Assembly (NCBI RefSeq): GCF_000022265.1
Contig: NC_011979.1
Location: 30,001 to 62,000, forward strand
Length of the DNA stretch: 32,000 nt
Reading direction: 5' to 3'
Source: Geotalea daltonii FRC-32
GTDB taxonomy: Bacteria; Desulfobacterota; Desulfuromonadia; Geobacterales; Geobacteraceae
Positions 1,207 through 9,614 of the stretch are shown here, one piece after another; position 1 is the first letter of the stretch; every line of letters begins with the position of its first letter. A program made the position numbers and the translations under genes. The notes beneath the pieces were generated by a model. It saw only the letters and a program-made list of their open reading frames with translations. It had not been told where the DNA came from and made no database searches.

Positions 1207-2643
1207 GTGCCTGAACAGATCCGCATACTGATACTGGAGGATTCGGAAGAAGATGCAGTCCTCCTGGTCCGTGAGCTCAAAAAGGGGGGCATGGACCTGT
1301 CCCATGAAAGGATCGACACCCCAACCGCCCTTGAAAGGGCGTTAGTGCAAAGGACCTGGGATATTATCATTGCCGATTACCGCATGCCCGGTTTCAATGC
1401 TGTCGAGGCCCTGGAAATCCTCAGGGGAACCGACATGGATATCCCCTTCATCATCCTGTCTGGCAAGATAGGTGAAGATCTGGCCGTTGCCGCCATGAAA
1501 GCTGGCGCCAACGATTATGTCATGAAGAGCAACCTGTCGCGGCTGGTGCCGGCTATCCAGCGGGAATTACGGGAAGCAGAGGAAAGGAAACGGCGGCGGG
1601 AAGCGGAAGAGGCACTTAAGAATCAGTTCCGGCAGATTACCGCCATTTTCGATTCGATGAATGCCATGGTTTCTGTGGCTGATATGGAAAGTCACGAACT
1701 GTTGTTCATGAACCGTTTCGGCGGCAAACTGGCAGGGGGGGAATGGAAAGGGAAGAAGAGCCATGAAGTCCTGAACTATGACCAGTCCCTCTGTACCAAG
1801 GAGACGCTTTTGCGGGACGGTGAGCCTCAGCCACCTTTTGTCTGGGAATACCAGAACCCCATCTCCGGCAGGTGGTATCAGTGTATAGACAAGGCGATTT
1901 ACTGGCCGGATGGCAGGCTGGTCAGGCTGCAGATAGCAGTGGATATCAGCGAGCGCAAAGAGATTGAACAGATGAAGGACGAGATGATATCGGCGGTAAG
2001 TCATGAAATGCGCACTCCCTTGACCGCCATGCTCGGCTTTACCGAATATCTGCTGGAAAATGAGGTCGATCCGTCGCAGCTGAAGAATTACCTGAATACC
2101 ATCTATAAGGAAACGGCCCGGCTTAAAGAGCTGATCGGCAACTTTCTCGACCTGCAGCAGATTAATGCCAGGATGACAACTTACCGGATGCACCCGCTGG
2201 ATGTCTGTCTTCTCATCAAGGATGCTGCCGGGCTGTTTGCACTGGATTATGACAGCGGGCGGCTGGTCGTCCAGTGCCCCCGGAATATTCCGCCACTTCA
2301 GGGTGACGAGGCGCGGCTTCACCAGGTACTGACCAACCTCATTTCCAATGGCCTGAAGTATTCCCAGGCACCAGCCAGGGTGACGGTCGGGGCTGAAGCG
2401 GAGGGAGACCAGGTTGTCGTGTGGGTGAAGGATGAGGGCTGTGGCATTCCGCCAGAGTTGCAGGAAAAGATTTTCGAGAAGTTTTACCGCATAGATAATA
2501 CTGACCGGCGCCACATAGGTGGCACCGGCCTTGGACTGGCATTGGTTCGGGAGATCGTCGCCGCCCATGGTGGACGGGTCTGGGTGACCAGCGAGGTAGG
2601 CAGGGGGAGCACCTTCTTCATCAGCCTTCCCACCGCCGGGTGA
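1207..2643 (+). CDS. Hybrid sensor histidine kinase (N-terminal receiver + PAS-like region + HisKA/HATPase_c)
   Basis: Track ORF with a GTG start. Receiver: RILILEDSEEDAVLL...IIIADYRMPGFNAVE...AGANDYVMK. H-box: EMISAVSHEMRTPLTAMLGF. N/G boxes: LISNGLKYS, VKDEGCGIP, GGTGLGLALV. Confidence 0.85.
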   Translation: MPEQIRILILEDSEEDAVLLVRELKKGGMDLSHERIDTPTALERALVQRTWDIIIADYRMPGFNAVEALEILRGTDMDIPFIILSGKIGEDLAVAAMKAGANDYVMKSNLSRLVPAIQRELREAEERKRRREAEEALKNQFRQITAIFDSMNAMVSVADMESHELLFMNRFGGKLAGGEWKGKKSHEVLNYDQSLCTKETLLRDGEPQPPFVWEYQNPISGRWYQCIDKAIYWPDGRLVRLQIAVDISERKEIEQMKDEMISAVSHEMRTPLTAMLGFTEYLLENEVDPSQLKNYLNTIYKETARLKELIGNFLDLQQINARMTTYRMHPLDVCLLIKDAAGLFALDYDSGRLVVQCPRNIPPLQGDEARLHQVLTNLISNGLKYSQAPARVTVGAEAEGDQVVVWVKDEGCGIPPELQEKIFEKFYRIDNTDRRHIGGTGLGLALVREIVAAHGGRVWVTSEVGRGSTFFISLPTAG

Positions 2644-3149: not shown

Positions 3150-3178
3150 ATAATAGAAGAACGGTGGGCACAGGGCAA
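3150..3178 (-). promoter_or_regulatory. Candidate sigma70 promoter for the secreted-protein gene
   Basis: Minus strand reads TTGCCC (3178-3173), a 17-nt spacer, then TATTAT (3155-3150), about 20 nt upstream of the GGAGG RBS. Confidence 0.35.
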
Positions 3179-3200
3179 GGGGAAAAATCGGTCGGCGGAC

Positions 3201-3221
3201 GGAAGACGGAAGACGGAAGAC
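3201..3221. repeat. Heptad tandem repeat, ggaagac x3
   Basis: Direct reading: ggac-ggaagac-ggaagac-ggaagac-ggcgg. Lies in the intergenic gap between two minus-strand genes. Confidence 0.9.
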
Positions 3222-3244
3222 GGCGGTCAGGCGGGAAAAGAGCT

Positions 3245-3307
3245 CCACCGACCACCGACTGCCGACCACCGACCACCGACTGCCGACCACCGACCACCGA
3301 CTGCCGA
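3245..3307. repeat. Perfect 21-bp tandem repeat x3 (ccaccgaccaccgactgccga). Each unit is made of three heptads.
   Basis: Three identical head-to-tail copies read directly. Each unit is ccaccga-ccaccga-ctgccga. The block is flanked by an imperfect inverted repeat: cggtcggcggacgg (3188-3201) and ccgactgccgaccg (3297-3310). Confidence 0.95.
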
Positions 3308-3314
3308 CCGTTTT

Positions 3315-4334
3315 TTAAAGCCGTCTATCTGCTGCTTCGGCAAAAAGCTTCAGCTGGGCCATCATCCTGGCGAACTTTTTCGGTTTCAGGGATTGGGGAC
3401 CGTCGGACGAAGCACGCTCCGGGTCAGGGTGCACTTCGATGATCAGCCCGTCTGCACCGGAGGCCACAGCGGCATAGGCCATGGGGGCCACATACTGGTA
3501 GTGGCCGGTGCCGTGGGAAGGATCGACAATAACCGGCAGATGGGTTTTTTCTTTGAGAACCGGAATAGCGGACAGGTCCAGAGTATTGCGGGTCGCCGTT
3601 TCGAAGGTGCGGATGCCTCGCTCGCAGAGGATGACCTTCTGGTTCCCTTCGCTGAGGATGTACTCGGCACTCATGAGGAACTCCTGGATGGTCATGGACA
3701 TGCCCCGTTTGAGAAGCACGGGCCTGGAGAGCTGGCCGACCTTTTTCAGCAGGGCGAAGTTCTGGGCGTTGCGGGCGCCGATCTGCAGAATATCCGAATA
3801 CTCAGCGACGAGGTCGGCAGTCTCAGGATTAACTACTTCGGTAACGATCGGCAGACCGGTCAGGTCGCGGGCCTTTGCCAGGAGTTTCAGTCCTTCCTCT
3901 TCAAGGCCCTGGAAGGAATAGGGGGACGTGCGGGGCTTGAAGGCGCCGCCGCGCAGCACGTGGGCACCGGCTTCCTTCACTGCCAAGGCTGAAGAGATGA
4001 TCTGTTCCTCGCTTTCGACGGAACAGGGGCCGGCCATGACCACTATTTCCTTGCCGCCGATACTGAGAGTATCAGTGATGGGAATGATGCTGGTTTCTTT
4101 TTTAACTTCCTTCGAGGCAAGCTTGTATGGCTGCAGGATTGGTACGACGCTTTCCACCCCGTGCATGGACTCGATAGACTGAAGCACTGTTTTCCCCCTT
4201 TCGTCGCCAACTGCGCCAATAACATCGCGGGTCGCACCATGGATGACATGGGGCTGGTATCCCAGCTCCCTGACCCGCTTCAACACTTCTTCTCTGTCCT
4301 TTTTAACTGCTCCGGATTTCATGACAATGATCAT
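3315..4334 (-). CDS. aroF: 3-deoxy-7-phosphoheptulonate (DAHP) synthase, type I-beta, with an N-terminal ferredoxin-like/ACT-type regulatory domain
   Basis: Start taken at Met36 of track ORF 3315..4439. The ATG at 4332-4334 is preceded by AGGAGAGG (revcomp of 4339-4346). The N-terminal ~65 aa ([33 protein letters not shown]...) is followed by the KDO8P/DAHP synthase barrel ([34 protein letters not shown]). This architecture is known from Thermotoga-type DAHPS. Confidence 0.85.
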
Positions 4335-4352
4335 TCTTCCTCTCCTTTTTCC

Positions 4353-4390
4353 CGAAAACAAAAAGGCCGGAGGATCGCCCCCCCGGCCTT
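4353..4390 (-). terminator. Leader terminator hairpin 2 (D:E), immediately upstream of the aroF RBS
   Basis: Minus strand: AAGGCCGGGGG (4390-4380) pairs with CCUCCGGCCUU (4373-4363), an ~11-bp GC-rich stem, followed by UUUGUUUUC. Confidence 0.6.
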
Positions 4391-4405
4391 GTAAAATGGT
4401 ACTGC

Positions 4406-4447
4406 AAATGAAAAAGCCGGGGGTCGGATTCCTGTCCACCCTCGGCT
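4406..4447 (-). terminator. Leader hairpin 1 (B:C), terminator-like
   Basis: Minus strand: AGCCGAGGGU (4447-4438) pairs with ACCCCCGGCU (4424-4415), with one mismatch and a 13-nt loop, followed by UUUUCAUUU. Confidence 0.5.
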
Positions 4448-4481
4448 TTCGGTTTTTATTAGTAAAGTTTACTGCTCTCGC

Positions 4482-4574
4482 CTAATTCGAACCTCTACCC
4501 TGGGCAGACGGCCTAAAGAAAAAGCCGCACCAAAAATAAAAGCTGAAAAAGGAAAAATAACTGGTCGTGAGCAT
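4482..4574 (-). CDS. Candidate leader peptide, 30 aa, Phe/Tyr/Trp-rich: MLTTSYFSFFSFYFWCGFFFRPSAQGRGSN
   Basis: Translated by hand from the reverse complement: atg ctc acg acc agt tat ttt tcc ttt ttc agc ttt tat ttt tgg tgc ggc ttt ttc ttt agg ccg tct gcc cag ggt aga ggt tcg aat tag. It is below the 60-aa cutoff of the track. It lies between a promoter-like site and two terminator hairpins upstream of DAHP synthase. No SD sequence is present, so it may be leaderless. Confidence 0.55.
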   Translation of the reverse strand: MLTTSYFSFFSFYFWCGFFFRPSAQGRGSN

Positions 4575-4577
4575 GGT

Positions 4578-4586
4578 TGCTATAAT
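4578..4586 (+). promoter_or_regulatory. Candidate extended -10 promoter element (TGcTATAAT) facing the 4752 gene
   Basis: Plus strand reads tgctataat at 4578-4586. The -35 is poor (taactg). It overlaps the minus-strand -10 and leader start in a back-to-back arrangement. Confidence 0.3.
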
Positions 4587-4611
4587 CGCTGAATCTTTTC
4601 CGTCATGTCAA
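4582..4611 (-). promoter_or_regulatory. Candidate sigma70 promoter for the leader/aroF transcript
   Basis: Minus strand reads TTGACA (4611-4606), an 18-nt spacer, then GATTAT (4587-4582). The leader ATG (4574) lies 7 nt after the -10, which implies a leaderless or nearly leaderless start. Confidence 0.4.
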
Positions 4612-4751
4612 GATTTTTTATTGTATAGGTGAAAAAATAGCGACACGGCGAGCTGACAGGCGCAGCTACTTATTTTTGCTGCGCCTTCAACAATTGCCAT
4701 GTTATAGTTGGACATTCTGTGGAAAGTATTCCAACCAACAAGGAGAGATTC

Positions 4752-5531
4752 ATGAAACAGCCATTGATTCTTGCCGCCGCCGTCCTGATTTCGCTTCTTC
4801 CACTTGCAGGGCAGGCAGATGAGGGGCAGAAGCCGATTCATCCTGTCATTTCATCGGCCCGTCCCGGAGCTGAAAAGCCCAAAGAGGCCGAACAGCCCAA
4901 GCAAGTTCAGGTGTCGGGAAAAGTCATGCAAACCATGAACGGCGGAGGGTACACCTATATCCTCGTGAAACAGGCTGACGGCAACAAGATCTGGCTGGCC
5001 ATTCCCCAGACCAGTGTCGAACTTGGCGCCCAGTTGACCTTCAAGCCGGGCATGGAGATGGTCAATCTGCCCAGCAAATCCTTGAATCGCACTTTTGACA
5101 GGATCATCTTCTCGGAAGGAATCGTCGATGAGGGGAAAAATGCGAAAAAGGGGACAAAAAAATCACCGGGCAGCAAGGGGGCAATCGCCGTTGCCGAAGG
5201 CAAGATAAAGGTGAAGAAGGCGACGGGTGCCAATGCTTACACAGTCGCTGAGCTTTACAAGCTGAAGGGCAAGCTGAACAAAAAGAACATTGTCGTCAGA
5301 GGGAAGGTGGTGAGGGTCTCTGCCAACATCATGGGCAAGAACTGGATCCATCTCCAGGACGGCAGTGGCGATCCGAAGAAAGGTACGCATAATCTGGTTG
5401 TCACGTCCCAGGCCATGCCGGTCATCGGGGAGGTCGTTACCGCCAAAGGCGTACTCTACGGTGACAAGGACTTCGGCGGCGGATATAAATATGTGGTAAT
5501 TGTCGAGAAAGCGGAGCTGGAAATCCAGTAA
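4752..5531 (+). CDS. Secreted protein with two OB-fold-like (BOF/tRNA_anti-like) repeats; function unknown
   Basis: Start taken at Met12 of track ORF 4719..5531. The ATG at 4752 is preceded by AGGAGA. Signal peptide: MKQPLILAAAVLISLLPLAGQA. Two related modules end in GGGYTYILVK and GGGYKYVVIVEK. The module KGKLNKKNIVVRGKVVRVSANIMGKNWIHLQDGSG resembles periplasmic OB-fold proteins. Confidence 0.6.
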   Translation: MKQPLILAAAVLISLLPLAGQADEGQKPIHPVISSARPGAEKPKEAEQPKQVQVSGKVMQTMNGGGYTYILVKQADGNKIWLAIPQTSVELGAQLTFKPGMEMVNLPSKSLNRTFDRIIFSEGIVDEGKNAKKGTKKSPGSKGAIAVAEGKIKVKKATGANAYTVAELYKLKGKLNKKNIVVRGKVVRVSANIMGKNWIHLQDGSGDPKKGTHNLVVTSQAMPVIGEVVTAKGVLYGDKDFGGGYKYVVIVEKAELEIQ

Positions 5532-8525: not shown

Positions 8526-9614
8526 ATGACGCGCGCCTTCCTCAGATCCGGCTATACTACAGGCGCCTGTGCAGCTGCTGCGGCTAAAGGTGCGGCGGAA
8601 ATGCTGCGTGACGGGCAGGTCATCGACCGGGTGGAAATTATCCTGCCCGGCGGGGAGCTGGTTCCATTCACCCTGCGGAACCAGCAGCTTGGTGACAAAT
8701 TCGCCTCCTGCTCAGTGATAAAAGATGCCGGTGACGATCCGGACATCACCAATGGCGCCGAAATAAACGTTTCGCTCACCATTGAGCCGGCGCCGCCGGG
8801 AACCAAAGGAGAGATTGCCGTTAGCGGCGGGACAGGCATCGGCAAGGTAACCAAGCCGGGACTGGCGGTACCGGTGGGGGAATGGGCCATCAACCCGGTG
8901 CCGCGAAAGATGATCCGGGTTGTCATCAACGAGGTTTTTGCCATCCGCTGCGTTCCTTCCCTGATGAAGGTGACAGTAAGTATCCCCAACGGGGAAGAGC
9001 TGGCGAAAAAGACACTAAATGCCCGTCTGGGCATTATCGGCGGCCTGTCCATCCTGGGGACCACCGGCATCGTCAAACCCATATCGGCCAAGGCCTGGAC
9101 CGATACCATCGATGCTGCCATCGATGTTGCCCTGGCCTGCGGCAGCAAAACCCTGATCCTTTCCACCGGGCGTACCAGCGAGCTGGTCGCGGAACGGCAC
9201 CTGCAGCTGGGAAAACTGACGCAAGAAGAAGCATTCATCATGATGGGGGACCACGTCGGCTATGCACTGAAGACCTGTGCGGCCAAGGGGGTCAGAGAGA
9301 TTGTCATCGCCGGCCAGTTCGCAAAACTCCTCAAGGTGGCCTGCGGTCACGAGCAGACCCACGTCTCCTCCTCGGAGCTTGACCTGCAGCAGCTGGTTTC
9401 ATGGCTTGGCCCTGATCCTCGGACCTCAGGGCTGGTACTCCTTGCCCGGCGGGCCAACACTGCCAGGCAAGTGCTTGAAGAATCCGGTAACGATCCCGTG
9501 CTGATGGCAGCAGTCTGTGAACGGGTTAAAGGTTTTGCTGCAAGGCTGGTTCAGGAATCGTCCATAAAGGTTTTACTGGCGGGCTACGGCCAGGAAGTGT
9601 TATATTTCGGCTGA
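8526..9614 (+). CDS. cbiD: Cobalt-precorrin-5B (C1)-methyltransferase
   Basis: Track ORF. RSGYTTGACAAAAAKGA N-terminus and GTTGIVKPIS motif characteristic of CbiD. Confidence 0.85.
   Translation: MTRAFLRSGYTTGACAAAAAKGAAEMLRDGQVIDRVEIILPGGELVPFTLRNQQLGDKFASCSVIKDAGDDPDITNGAEINVSLTIEPAPPGTKGEIAVSGGTGIGKVTKPGLAVPVGEWAINPVPRKMIRVVINEVFAIRCVPSLMKVTVSIPNGEELAKKTLNARLGIIGGLSILGTTGIVKPISAKAWTDTIDAAIDVALACGSKTLILSTGRTSELVAERHLQLGKLTQEEAFIMMGDHVGYALKTCAAKGVREIVIAGQFAKLLKVACGHEQTHVSSSELDLQQLVSWLGPDPRTSGLVLLARRANTARQVLEESGNDPVLMAAVCERVKGFAARLVQESSIKVLLAGYGQEVLYFG

Follow-up and report, generated by a model that had tools for sequence, protein, structure and literature searches.

A probable leader-peptide transcription attenuator upstream of a DAHP synthase gene in Geotalea daltonii

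In the E. coli pheL-pheA system (Rfam Phe_leader, RF01859) and in the enteric trp, his and thr leaders, a short open reading frame (ORF) rich in codons for the end product is combined with competing 1:2, 2:3 and 3:4 pairings and an intrinsic terminator upstream of the structural gene. The enteric his leader employs more than four segments in a relay. A second kind of attenuator is represented in Actinobacteria by the mycobacterial polycysteine uORFs, which respond to amino acid supply, are leaderless, lack a Shine-Dalgarno (SD) sequence and are rich in codons for a single amino acid. They act mainly through translation or operon polarity and are not known to use a classic terminator/antiterminator switch.

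For DAHP synthase, the closest functional precedent is aroR of C. glutamicum, a Phe-Tyr-Phe leader peptide located before the aroF DAHP synthase operon, for which there is evidence of attenuation (Neshat et al. 2014, summarised in PMC11802643); it responds to phenylalanine limitation by ribosome stalling (PMC11802643). In Acholeplasma, a uORF containing Phe codons, uORFC-13-1, has been predicted beside an intrinsic terminator, and aroF is the only gene that it was found to precede (Brewer et al. 2021, PMC8632094). Within the Geobacteraceae, a "predicted short RNA element" was annotated 5′ of aroG-2 (Gmet_0346, equivalent to GSU3142) in G. metallireducens and G. sulfurreducens as Gmet_R0069 and GSUR082, respectively (Aklujkar et al. 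2009, PMC2700814). It was described as 192-272 nt conserved in "several Geobacteraceae" before a Thermotoga-type DAHP synthase and was suggested to regulate the isoenzyme (PMC2700814). That paper gives no ORF, structure or mechanism for the element, and the stem "attenuat" is absent from its text.

Here we analysed a window of 32,000 nucleotides from Geotalea daltonii FRC-32 (contig NC_011979.1, positions 30,001 to 62,000), and all coordinates below refer to this window. The sequence upstream of its aroF gene very probably encodes a ribosome-mediated (leader-peptide) transcription attenuator for DAHP synthase. Sequence comparison supports translation of the leader, the hairpins and the competition between them, and we infer the start site, ribosome stalling, termination and the regulatory response. 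The element resembles the enteric leaders in its end-product codons, competing segments, terminator and extended relay; it differs from them in lying before the gene for the first common step and not before a terminal branch, in mixing Phe, Tyr and Trp codons, in its probably leaderless, SD-less initiation and in carrying two tandem U-run terminators. It is not a homologue of Phe_leader RF01859, which scored 16.7 bits (E = 4.8) against a gathering score of 55. Compared by functional description only, C. glutamicum aroR likewise places a DAHP synthase operon under an aromatic-codon leader peptide, but belongs to another phylum and has three aromatic codons where the leaders described here have 8-12, with no Trp codon reported; we know of no tandem-terminator relay in that system. 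The Acholeplasma uORF shares the Phe codons and the intrinsic terminator at aroF, but it is limited to Acholeplasma and environmental sequences, has a ribosome binding site and is a prediction only, and its kinship with the present element is unsupported. The polycysteine uORFs share the SD-less regulatory ORF at the transcript 5′ end, but in another phylum and for another amino acid.

With aroR (PMC11802643) and uORFC-13-1 (PMC8632094) as precedents, an earlier note on this DNA, made from its letters, overstated the novelty of an aromatic-codon leader controlling this type of enzyme. The mechanism is textbook, and what is conserved across several phyla is a leader family for which no published mechanism was found; literature searches returned no published description of the attenuator described here. 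Judged by gene context and size, Gmet_R0069/GSUR082 is probably the same element, as it matches in the type of gene, its position, its size (192-272 nt) and the taxon. The attenuator model proposes a mechanism for that 2009 annotation.

The gene that the leader would regulate (3315..4334; this and all following features lie on the minus strand unless stated) encodes an aroF/aroG-type DAHP synthase of type I-beta, whose N-terminus carries a ferredoxin-like regulatory domain. Domain matches agree with the earlier assignment (DAHP_synth_1, E 7e-86; N-terminal DAHP_snth_FXD, E 4e-20), and its SD region, AGGAGAGG, can be read directly at 4339..4346. The neighbouring gene begins at 4752 on the plus strand and is divergent, and the hairpins described below were rejected as its terminators.

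A promoter scan recovered the promoter-like site noted previously, TTGACA-18-GATTAT (4611..4582). It comprises a -35 hexamer TTGACA (4606..4611), of which TTGAC is found in every Geobacteraceae relative, and a -10-like hexamer GATTAT (4582..4587) that lies 7 nt before the A of the leader ATG. This ATG follows TTGACA by 31±1 nt: across 29 leaders (the window plus 28 Geobacteraceae) the TTGAC copy nearest the ATG ends 30-32 nt before it in 27. No SD-like motif was present upstream of the ATG in any of these 29 leaders. Among other Desulfuromonadales, where the ORF lies away from the predicted transcript start, an SD-like GGAG, GAGG or AAGG was found upstream in five of eight leaders. Because of the promoter-to-ATG spacing and the lack of an SD motif, the Geobacteraceae leader is probably leaderless, its transcript beginning at the leader ATG or no more than 2 nt from it. 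With no SD on the ORF, its translation would therefore depend on leaderless initiation, which we infer only from the promoter spacing. A literature search yielded no usable Geobacter transcription start sites for GSU3142/GSUR082. The element makes it possible to test whether, outside Actinobacteria, a regulatory leader peptide can be translated from a leaderless transcript.

The leader ORF itself (4482..4574) comprises 30 codons and a stop, and its direct translation, MLTTSYFSFFSFYFWCGFFFRPSAQGRGSN, is identical to the peptide reported in the earlier note. Codons 6-20 (4515..4559) form the putative regulatory run, identified by composition and aligned-codon comparison, and 11 of these 15 residues are aromatic (8 Phe, 2 Tyr, 1 Trp), as had been counted. 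This composition is an extreme outlier: the runner-up among the 507 ORFs of the window has 8 aromatic residues in a 15-residue stretch, and only one of approximately 44,000 stop-free 15-residue stretches in the six frames of the window reaches 11. When upstream regions were aligned, all 28 Geobacteraceae orthologue loci shared the arrangement, each with an intact ORF of 26-30 codons at the same position, and the motif F.FYFW.GFYFRPSA recurred in the Geobacteraceae leader peptides. Aligned codons swap among TTT, TTC, TAT and TAC yet remain aromatic. Despite nucleotide change, the ORF keeps its start, its stop, its reading frame and the aromatic character of its codons. Aromatic content is 27-43% in frame compared to 4-28% in the other two frames, which contain stops in most leaders. 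Taken together, this comparative evidence supports translation of the leader ORF.

That the attenuator in practice responds to phenylalanine only, with the Tyr and Trp codons tolerated or structural, is a rather unlikely reading. Phe is by far the commonest residue (4-10 per leader), Tyr is missing altogether from leaders L031, L032, L036, L037 and L040, and the single Trp codon, an invariant UGG, sits in region 1, where it forms part of the region 1:2 helix described below. Moreover, tyrosine availability had no effect on transcription under the Phe-Tyr-Phe leader of C. glutamicum aroR (PMC11802643). Against phenylalanine as the sole signal, Phe and Tyr interchange at several aligned positions from which other residues are excluded, and the YYY or YYYY runs of Syntrophales leaders, together with WWW in the Thermodesulfovibrio leader L031, are hard to explain without selection on the codons.

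Downstream of the aromatic codons, conservation shifts to RNA. Presented with the alignment unprompted, RNAalifold selected a helix between region 2 (AGGCCGUCUGCCC, 4502..4514), the putative 5′ strand of the antiterminator, and region 3 (AAAGCCGAGGGUGGA, 4435..4449), the 5′ arm of the first terminator hairpin, T1. The pairing joins the covarying core GUCUGCCC of region 2 (4509..4502; codons Ser23-Ala24 and flanking bases) to the core GGGUGGAC of region 3 (4441..4434). RNAalifold, pair counts and duplex energies support both strands, in combination with the comparison of reading frames for region 2 and folds for region 3. When the 2:3 and second-hairpin (H2) helices were counted together, 92.7% of cells were paired and nine pairs had changed on both sides, a result that none of 500 shuffles equalled; slid controls were 39-58% paired. 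The duplex energy of 2:3 against shuffles gave z = -2.6 in the window and values down to -6.8 in relatives. Compensatory versions of the helix were found as GUCCACCC:GGGUGGAC in L023, CCGUCUAUC:GAUAGACG in Thermodesulfovibrio, CAUCGACCCG:CGGGUUGAUG in L032 and L036, GGUCCGCCC:GGGCGGACC in L047 and GUCUGUCCG:CGGACAGAC in L050. Across lineages GUCUGCCC is read in all three frames, as PSA, VCP or RLP, and its conservation therefore reflects a constraint at the RNA level; for the same reason, the part of the peptide 3′ of the aromatic run is without conservation as protein. The lineage-dependent reading also led us to reject a nascent-peptide arrest motif, "RPSA", as the conserved entity. The antiterminator helix and T1 overlap at 4441..4434 and are mutually exclusive.

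In minimum-energy folds region 2 has an upstream partner, region 1 (GGUGCGGCUU, 4522..4531), which covers codons Trp15-Cys16-Gly17 and the start of Phe18. The region 1:2 helix had 88.6% of cells paired across the 29 leaders, and it offers little covariation evidence because its pairs are almost invariant within the family. A pairing like that of regions 1 and 2, with different sequence, occurs in L032, L047 and L050.

Folding of the window sequence with masked ribosome footprints gave three states: one with no ribosome, one with a ribosome stalled at codons 13-15 and one with the ribosome at codon 20 or the stop. In the window's clade the antiterminator core contains two G-U pairs, and the terminator fold has the lowest free energy as soon as region 4 (or region 6) has been made, even under masked ribosome footprints; the antiterminator is the minimum only in co-transcriptional snapshots. 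Read-through in this clade must therefore rest on kinetics, as in many attenuators.

The segment that had been proposed previously to compete with the first hairpin is a different one. CGGCUUU within the ORF is indeed complementary to AAAGCCG in the window, but AAAGCCG is found in only 8 of 29 leaders and AAGCCG in 12 of 29. Column-based counts on alignment A1 were dropped for this pairing and for T1, as the register differs between clades, and both were assessed by alignment-free duplex energies and motif searches. We rejected CGGCUUU:AAAGCCG as the antiterminator: it is unconserved, a ribosome stalled at codons 13-15 would cover it, and in combination with the conserved 2:3 helix it would make a pseudoknot. 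Its upstream strand falls inside region 1, the predicted partner of region 2 in a leader free of ribosomes.

Between the leader ORF and aroF lie two predicted intrinsic terminators, each a GC-rich hairpin followed by a U-run. T1 (4449..4413, -19.7 kcal/mol, then UUUUU) pairs region 3 with region 4 (UCCGACCCCCGGCUUU and U-run, 4411..4428), and H2 (4390..4363, 12 pairs, -22.0 kcal/mol, then UUUUUGUUUU) pairs region 5 (AAGGCCGGGGGG, 4379..4390) with region 6. The latter strand, UCCUCCGGCCUU, together with its U-run occupies 4355..4374 and belongs to the second predicted terminator; region 5 was placed by folding, alignment and pair counts. Both hairpins had been described in the earlier note, as had the complementarity between the 3′ arm of the first and the 5′ arm of the second, which here corresponds to an 11-bp duplex of regions 4 and 5 (-23.0 kcal/mol) that none of 300 shuffles equalled. 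By the energies of T1 and 4:5, region 4 has two alternative partners. Compensatory GC-to-AU changes among relatives were observed in the H2 stem.

The comparative data support coupling of the second hairpin to the first through this 4:5 pairing. We think rather unlikely a reading in which the leader ORF regulates T1 only, H2 is constitutive (marking a pause site, stabilising the mRNA or serving as a leaky fail-safe terminator) and 4:5 is a by-product of adjacent GC-rich A-tract/U-tract hairpins. Consistent with such a simpler arrangement, H2 is followed by only a weak U-tract, UUUGUGGG, in most Geobacteraceae relatives, and 4:5 complementarity is modest (family mean z = -1.9), being near zero and no better than shuffles in L004, L007 and L027; the Rokubacteria leaders L053 and L054 have one hairpin only. 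However, the first hairpin of L047, L058, L060, L069 and L073 has no U-run, and in Rokubacteria-type leaders of this form the sole U-run terminator is the next hairpin, so the ribosome signal can reach it only via 4:5 pairing. There, the 3′ arm of the first hairpin, CCCGCGGC, is the exact complement of the terminator's 5′ arm, GCCGCGGG. The equivalent in Syntrophales is CCAUGGC(C):(G)GCCAUGG. Different lineages retain the 4:5 complementarity although the sequences involved (CCGGGG, CCGCGGG, CCAUGG) are unrelated. Furthermore, an efficient, unregulated H2 with 12 bp and UUUUUGUUUU would block aroF permanently. The family also makes testable a two-terminator relay whose intermediate hairpin would terminate transcription in some lineages and only pass on the signal in others.

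The comparative evidence bears out the logic of leader-peptide attenuation put forward in the earlier note, with ribosome occupancy selecting terminator or antiterminator. In the model we propose, transcription would begin at or next to the leader AUG (4574), and a ribosome would read the 30-codon ORF while the polymerase makes the rest of the leader. Scarcity of charged tRNA-Phe, tRNA-Tyr or tRNA-Trp would stall the ribosome in the aromatic run, most effectively at around codons 6-15; at Phe codons 18-20, which lie very close to region 2, a stalled ribosome would mask that region. The stalled ribosome would cover region 1, leaving region 2 (GUCUGCCC, 4509..4502) free to pair with region 3 (GGGUGGAC, 4441..4434) before region 4 is synthesised, and T1 (3:4) would not form. 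Region 4 (CCCCCGGCUUU), thereby freed, would pair with region 5 (AAGGCCGGGGG) and preclude H2 (5:6), such that the polymerase, meeting neither hairpin, would continue into aroF. With plentiful aromatic amino acids the ribosome would pass region 2 and reach the stop codon inside the antiterminator domain; T1 and H2 would form, and transcripts would end near 4411 or 4355. Were the leader not translated, regions 1 and 2 would pair and both terminators would again form. The ferredoxin-like N-terminal domain of the enzyme would add allosteric feedback as a second layer. The model implies probable RNA-level control of the entry to aromatic amino acid synthesis in metal-reducing bacteria on top of this feedback, and makes the leader an obvious target for deregulation in Geobacter engineering or in the production of aromatic compounds.

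The arrangement extends well beyond the Geobacteraceae. A short aromatic-rich ORF was found within 350 nt upstream in 56 of 77 homologue loci, compared to 22 of 2406 control windows (0.9%); Nitrospirota, Methylomirabilota/Rokubacteria and Syntrophales are represented among the homologue loci. The switch helix GUCUGCCC:GGGCAGAC is common to lineages of Desulfobacterota (Geobacteraceae, other Desulfuromonadales and Syntrophales), Nitrospirota and Methylomirabilota/Rokubacteria. A covariance model of this leader family would improve genome annotation and regulon reconstruction, since the family is present in several phyla and absent from Rfam.

The distribution also bears on whether the leader might be an independent small gene, encoding a hydrophobic micropeptide with its own function or a trans-acting small RNA of about 165 nt ending at T1, and unrelated to aroF control. 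Attenuated leader transcripts can act in trans elsewhere, as rnTrpL does in Sinorhizobium, and a short transcript bounded by a promoter and a strong terminator would amount to a discrete small RNA. Independence from aroF is nevertheless very improbable, as at every locus examined, in several phyla, the element directly precedes a DAHP synthase homologue in the same orientation, and the peptide past the aromatic run is not conserved as a protein. A role in trans would be an addition to attenuation and not an alternative.

That the leader instead regulates by binding a ligand or protein, as a riboswitch-like RNA, a T-box or a protein-dependent antiterminator, with the short ORF incidental, is barely credible: the leader is strongly structured (whole-leader fold z = -3.55, with none of 200 shuffles as stable) and the 2009 genome paper lists its element among "possible promoters and riboswitches" (PMC2700814), but the coding features described above are conserved despite nucleotide change, the ORF is maintained across phyla while the remaining sequence diverges, deep conservation of the RNA is confined to the switch helices, and in the Rfam scan suggested earlier no family reached its gathering score, either in the window or in 15 related loci. 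A T-box was absent both from the gathering-score scan of the window and among the cmscan matches listed to E = 10 for 4200..4800. The best weak hits, to BSR0739 (27 bits versus 191), SdsR and Spy1186876, were judged to be chance matches that align only the two terminator hairpins.

A wider reading, speculative and on balance rather improbable when taken as a whole, would join these observations: an ancient attenuator family may have travelled with the DAHP synthase carrying the ferredoxin-like domain through Geobacteraceae, other Desulfuromonadales, Syntrophales, Nitrospirota and Methylomirabilota/Rokubacteria, and may combine three unusual features in the Geobacteraceae. The leader peptide may be made from a leaderless transcript, a six-segment relay may drive two successive terminators, and one leader may integrate the charging of tRNA-Phe, -Tyr and -Trp into a graded, multi-input control at the entry to the shikimate pathway. 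The leader RNA of about 165 nt left by termination might have a further role in trans.

Two further structures were considered and rejected. The sequence GGUUCGAAU at approximately 4494..4486 resembles a T-loop, but ARAGORN detected no tRNA, and the motif is confined to the window, apart from a variant in L019. In the minimum-energy fold of the window the U-rich part of the ORF sequesters the aroF SD, but the folds of its relatives lack this pairing. Within the interior of the antiterminator domain (4442..4501), alignment and folds place the leader stop codon (4484..4482) in a small covarying hairpin, for which most relatives have GUGUAA..UUACAC and the window's clade has AUUUAG..CUAAAU.

Upstream of aroF, the minus-strand DAHP synthase gene (4334..3315), lies a 30-codon ORF (ATG at 4574, TAG stop at 4484..4482, minus strand) encoding MLTTSYFSFFSFYFWCGFFFRPSAQGRGSN. 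Residues 6-20 comprise eight Phe, two Tyr and one Trp. These 11 aromatics compare with eight in the runner-up among the 507 window ORFs of at least 15 codons, and across the six frames 11 is reached just once in ~44,000 stretches of 15 residues free of stops. A promoter scan placed a promoter-like TTGACA-18-GATTAT at 4611..4582 on the same strand, and the Shine-Dalgarno (SD) sequence AGGAGAGG (4346..4339) precedes the aroF ATG at 4334. The 339-residue aroF product matches DAHP_synth_1 (E 7e-86) and carries an N-terminal ferredoxin-like DAHP synthase domain (E 4e-20). The gene appears monocistronic, since the ORF that follows on the minus strand comes with a separate promoter-like site (3178..3150). 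The sequence features listed in an earlier note were all real on re-examination of the window, and its interpretation of the leader as a transcription attenuator was essentially right: the ORF, both hairpins and the complementarity between them stand, while the antiterminator strand has changed. From the sequence we infer a transcript start, ribosome stalling, termination and a response to amino acids.

The aroF product shares 78-90% identity with proteins from Geobacteraceae genomes and MAGs (including Geomonas, Oryzomonas, Geomobilimonas and Geobacter), and in 28/28 such loci the region upstream of the orthologue retains an intact, aromatic-rich ORF of 26-30 codons at the same distance (consensus approximately MNSNRFY.AFSFYFW[FY]GFYFRPSAR). 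Aromatic-rich leader ORFs are also present in other Desulfuromonadales, in Thermodesulfovibrio of the Nitrospirota (for example MRKFAVNNFNFNWWWSFFFMPSITGLWLN), in Methylomirabilota/Rokubacteria (MGTIHRRHGFFGFWFYFAGVCPPALRM) and in Syntrophales (MGKRIFSFNFWYYFYYYFLPVCPSLRSH). A single rule was applied throughout: a short ORF no more than 350 nt upstream had to contain six or more aromatics within 12 residues. By this rule 56/77 loci were positive, compared with 22/2406 control windows from the same loci. A tRNA T-loop-like sequence, GGUUCGAAU (4486..4494, minus strand), lies in the last codons of the leader ORF, shortly before the stop codon; ARAGORN found no tRNA there, relatives do not keep the sequence save for a variant in one locus (L019), and it is probably due to chance.

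Unguided RNAalifold analysis of 29 aligned leaders (the window and 28 Geobacteraceae relatives) returned three elements: a small ORF-internal hairpin, a long-range helix GUCUGCCC:GGGYRGAC and a downstream hairpin, H2. The long-range helix joins the (P)SA codons (4509..4502; region 2) to an inner stretch of the T1 5′ arm (4441..4434; region 3), T1 being the first hairpin. Because it is mutually exclusive with T1, it is the predicted antiterminator. Together, the helix and H2 have 92.7% of cells paired and nine pairs changed on both sides, matched by 0/500 shuffles; sliding the partner columns by 1-3 positions lowered pairing to 39-58%. Alignment-free duplex energies between the 3′ part of the ORF and the T1 5′ arm were better than those of shuffles in almost all loci (region 2:3 z of -2.6 for the window and as low as -6.8 in relatives). 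Pairing is maintained by compensation between regions 2 and 3, which read CCGUCUGCCC and GGGCAGACGG in most Geobacteraceae, GUCCACCC and GGGUGGAC in L023, CCGUCUAUC and GAUAGACG in Thermodesulfovibrio, CAUCGACCCG and CGGGUUGAUG in L032 and L036, GGUCCGCCC and GGGCGGACC in L047, and GUCUGUCCG and CGGACAGAC in L050. The leader stop codon falls in a small hairpin enclosed by the antiterminator, and this hairpin also covaries (GUGUAA..UUACAC versus AUUUAG..CUAAAU).

A peptide signal was considered as the reason for the conserved 'RPSA' residues. The underlying GUCUGCCC is read in all three frames: Geobacter uses offset 2 (..PSA..), Syntrophales share offset 0 (..VCP..) with many Rokubacteria, and further Rokubacteria read it at offset 1 (..RLP..); this excludes a peptide signal, and the conservation therefore reflects an RNA constraint. 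The switch strand, as GUCUGCCC/GUCCGCCC, is common to aromatic-rich leaders of other phyla in different frames (VCP, VRP, RLP), namely L047, L058, L060, L069 and L073 of the Methylomirabilota/Rokubacteria and L059, L065-L067, L072 and L077 of the Syntrophales/Thermodesulfobacteriota. This distribution suggests either one old family of leaders or co-transfer with the gene.

In the minimum-energy fold, AGGCCGU..GCC of region 2 is the partner of region 1, GGUGCGGCUU (4531..4522; Trp15-Cys16-Gly17). Over the family as a whole, pairing in this 1:2 helix amounts to 88.6% with nearly invariant pairs, and similar pairings arise from different sequences in L032, L047 and L050. The antiterminator strand chosen in the earlier note, CGGCUUU (4527..4521), falls inside region 1. 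Its pairing with AAAGCCG (4449..4443) is present in the window, but AAAGCCG is kept in only 8/29 leaders and AAGCCG in 12/29. This strand was also rejected on position, as a ribosome that stalls on the aromatic codons would cover it. On the comparative evidence, GUCUGCCC of region 2 takes its place as the putative antiterminator strand.

Both hairpins described in the earlier note fold as proposed on the minus strand: T1 (regions 3:4; 4449..4413) at -19.7 kcal/mol, followed by UUUUU, and H2 (regions 5:6; 4390..4363) at -22.0 kcal/mol with 12 pairs, followed by UUUUUGUUUU. Neither can be a terminator of the preceding gene, which starts at 4752 on the plus strand and runs away from the leader. 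H2 is conserved, with GC-to-AU compensations within the stem; in most Geobacteraceae only UUUGUGGG follows it, and H2 is a candidate terminator there. The complementarity noted between the T1 3′ arm (region 4, CCCCCGGCUUU) and the H2 5′ arm (region 5, AAGGCCGGGGG) was likewise borne out, the 4:5 duplex reaching -23.0 kcal/mol, a match for either hairpin, with 0/300 shuffles as good. Family-wide the complementarity is less marked on average (mean z = -1.9), and L004, L007 and L027 lack it.

The strongest support for a relay through 4:5 pairing comes from other phyla. In the Rokubacteria-type leaders L047, L058, L060, L069 and L073, the 3′ arm of the first hairpin, CCCGCGGC, is perfectly complementary to GCCGCGGG, the second-hairpin 5′ arm, and a U-run follows the second hairpin but not the first. 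The first hairpin would act there purely as a relay toward the second, and because the U-run is confined to the latter, the ribosome signal would reach the terminator solely through 2:3 and 4:5 versus 3:4 and 5:6. The Syntrophales equivalent of 4:5 is CCAUGGC(C):(G)GCCAUGG. Our reading is that Geobacter has this six-segment relay too, and that its middle hairpin would additionally be a terminator. When a ribosome was masked at a stall site in L034 (a Desulfuromonadaceae MAG), the second-hairpin 3′ arm UCCGGCGG paired with GCGCCGCCGGGA farther downstream, which hints at a still longer relay (6:7) in that lineage.

The whole window leader folds better than shuffles (z = -3.55). As a consistency check, the growing transcript was folded with the ribosome footprint masked, and three states were recovered. 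Without a ribosome, 1:2 forms, followed by T1 and H2. With the A site at codons 13-15, the minimum-energy fold is 2:3 when polymerase is just beyond region 3, and 2:3 plus 4:5 before region 6 is made. Moving the A site to codon 20 or the stop codon yields T1 and H2. In this folding model the last three Phe codons would be too near region 2 to serve as inducing stall sites. Terminator folds are thermodynamically favoured once region 4 or 6 is present, so read-through must rely on kinetics, which is also the case for other attenuators. The minimum-energy structure of the free leader has the U/C-rich beginning of the aromatic run (4545..4557) base-paired to the purine-rich SD region of aroF (4336..4352, minus strand); this pairing is absent from folds of relatives and is probably a composition effect.

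Three lines of evidence agree that the leader ORF would be translated. Aligned Geobacteraceae codons interchange TTT, TTC, TAT and TAC, changes that are synonymous or Phe-Tyr and retain aromatic identity. Aromatic content is 27-43% in the ORF frame and 4-28% in the other two, which are interrupted by stops in most of these leaders. TTGAC occurs in every Geobacteraceae leader, and in 27/29 the distance from the end of the closest copy to the ATG is 30-32 nt; in L001 and L009 the nearest copy is off-spacing, and a more upstream TTGACA, read by eye, has the same spacing. Given a spacer of 17-18 nt followed by a -10 element of 6 nt, transcription would be expected to start at the A of the leader ATG or 1-2 nt earlier. 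An SD-like motif before this ATG is absent from all Geobacteraceae leaders. The promoter spacing and the missing motif together suggest that the leader peptide is probably translated from leaderless mRNA. In the eight other Desulfuromonadales leaders this promoter spacing is absent, and five have GGAG, GAGG or AAGG upstream of the ATG. The constant feature across lineages is a translatable ORF rather than any one upstream sequence.

The proposed mechanism belongs to the classic leader-peptide attenuation class (pheL, trpL, hisL), and the attenuator is a well-supported candidate for a new addition to that class rather than a new kind of system. It scored 16.7 bits against a threshold of 55 for Rfam Phe_leader, gave no T-box match, and is covered by no Rfam 15 family in the window or 15 related loci. 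In C. glutamicum, aroR likewise encodes a leader peptide (Phe-Tyr-Phe) before a DAHP synthase operon, whose transcription answers Phe limitation and not Tyr (reviewed in PMC11802643), and a Phe-coding uORF is predicted upstream of aroF in Acholeplasma (PMC8632094). Our literature search found no paper on the leader ORF or its switch; most subscription journals lay outside it and an earlier description is possible. A short RNA element 5′ of Geobacter aroG-2 that 'may participate in regulation' (Aklujkar et al. 2009, PMC2700814), a paper that never mentions attenuation, is very probably the same element, judged by gene context and size. Noteworthy points are that the leader mixes Phe, Tyr and Trp codons at the pathway's entry enzyme, that initiation in Geobacteraceae is probably leaderless, that a two-terminator six-segment relay is proposed, and that several phyla have the switch helix in common.

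Directly 3′ of the aroF stop codon (3317..3315) lie two tandem heptanucleotide-type repeat blocks (3190..3312, minus strand), the first of about nine GGTCGGC/AGTCGGT/GGTCGGT units and the second of three to four CGTCTTC units. Plus-strand genes nearby encode a hybrid histidine kinase with an N-terminal receiver domain (1207..2643), a protein without a Pfam match whose N-terminus MKQPLILAAAVLISLL resembles a signal peptide (4752..5531), and CbiD of cobalamin synthesis (8526..9614).
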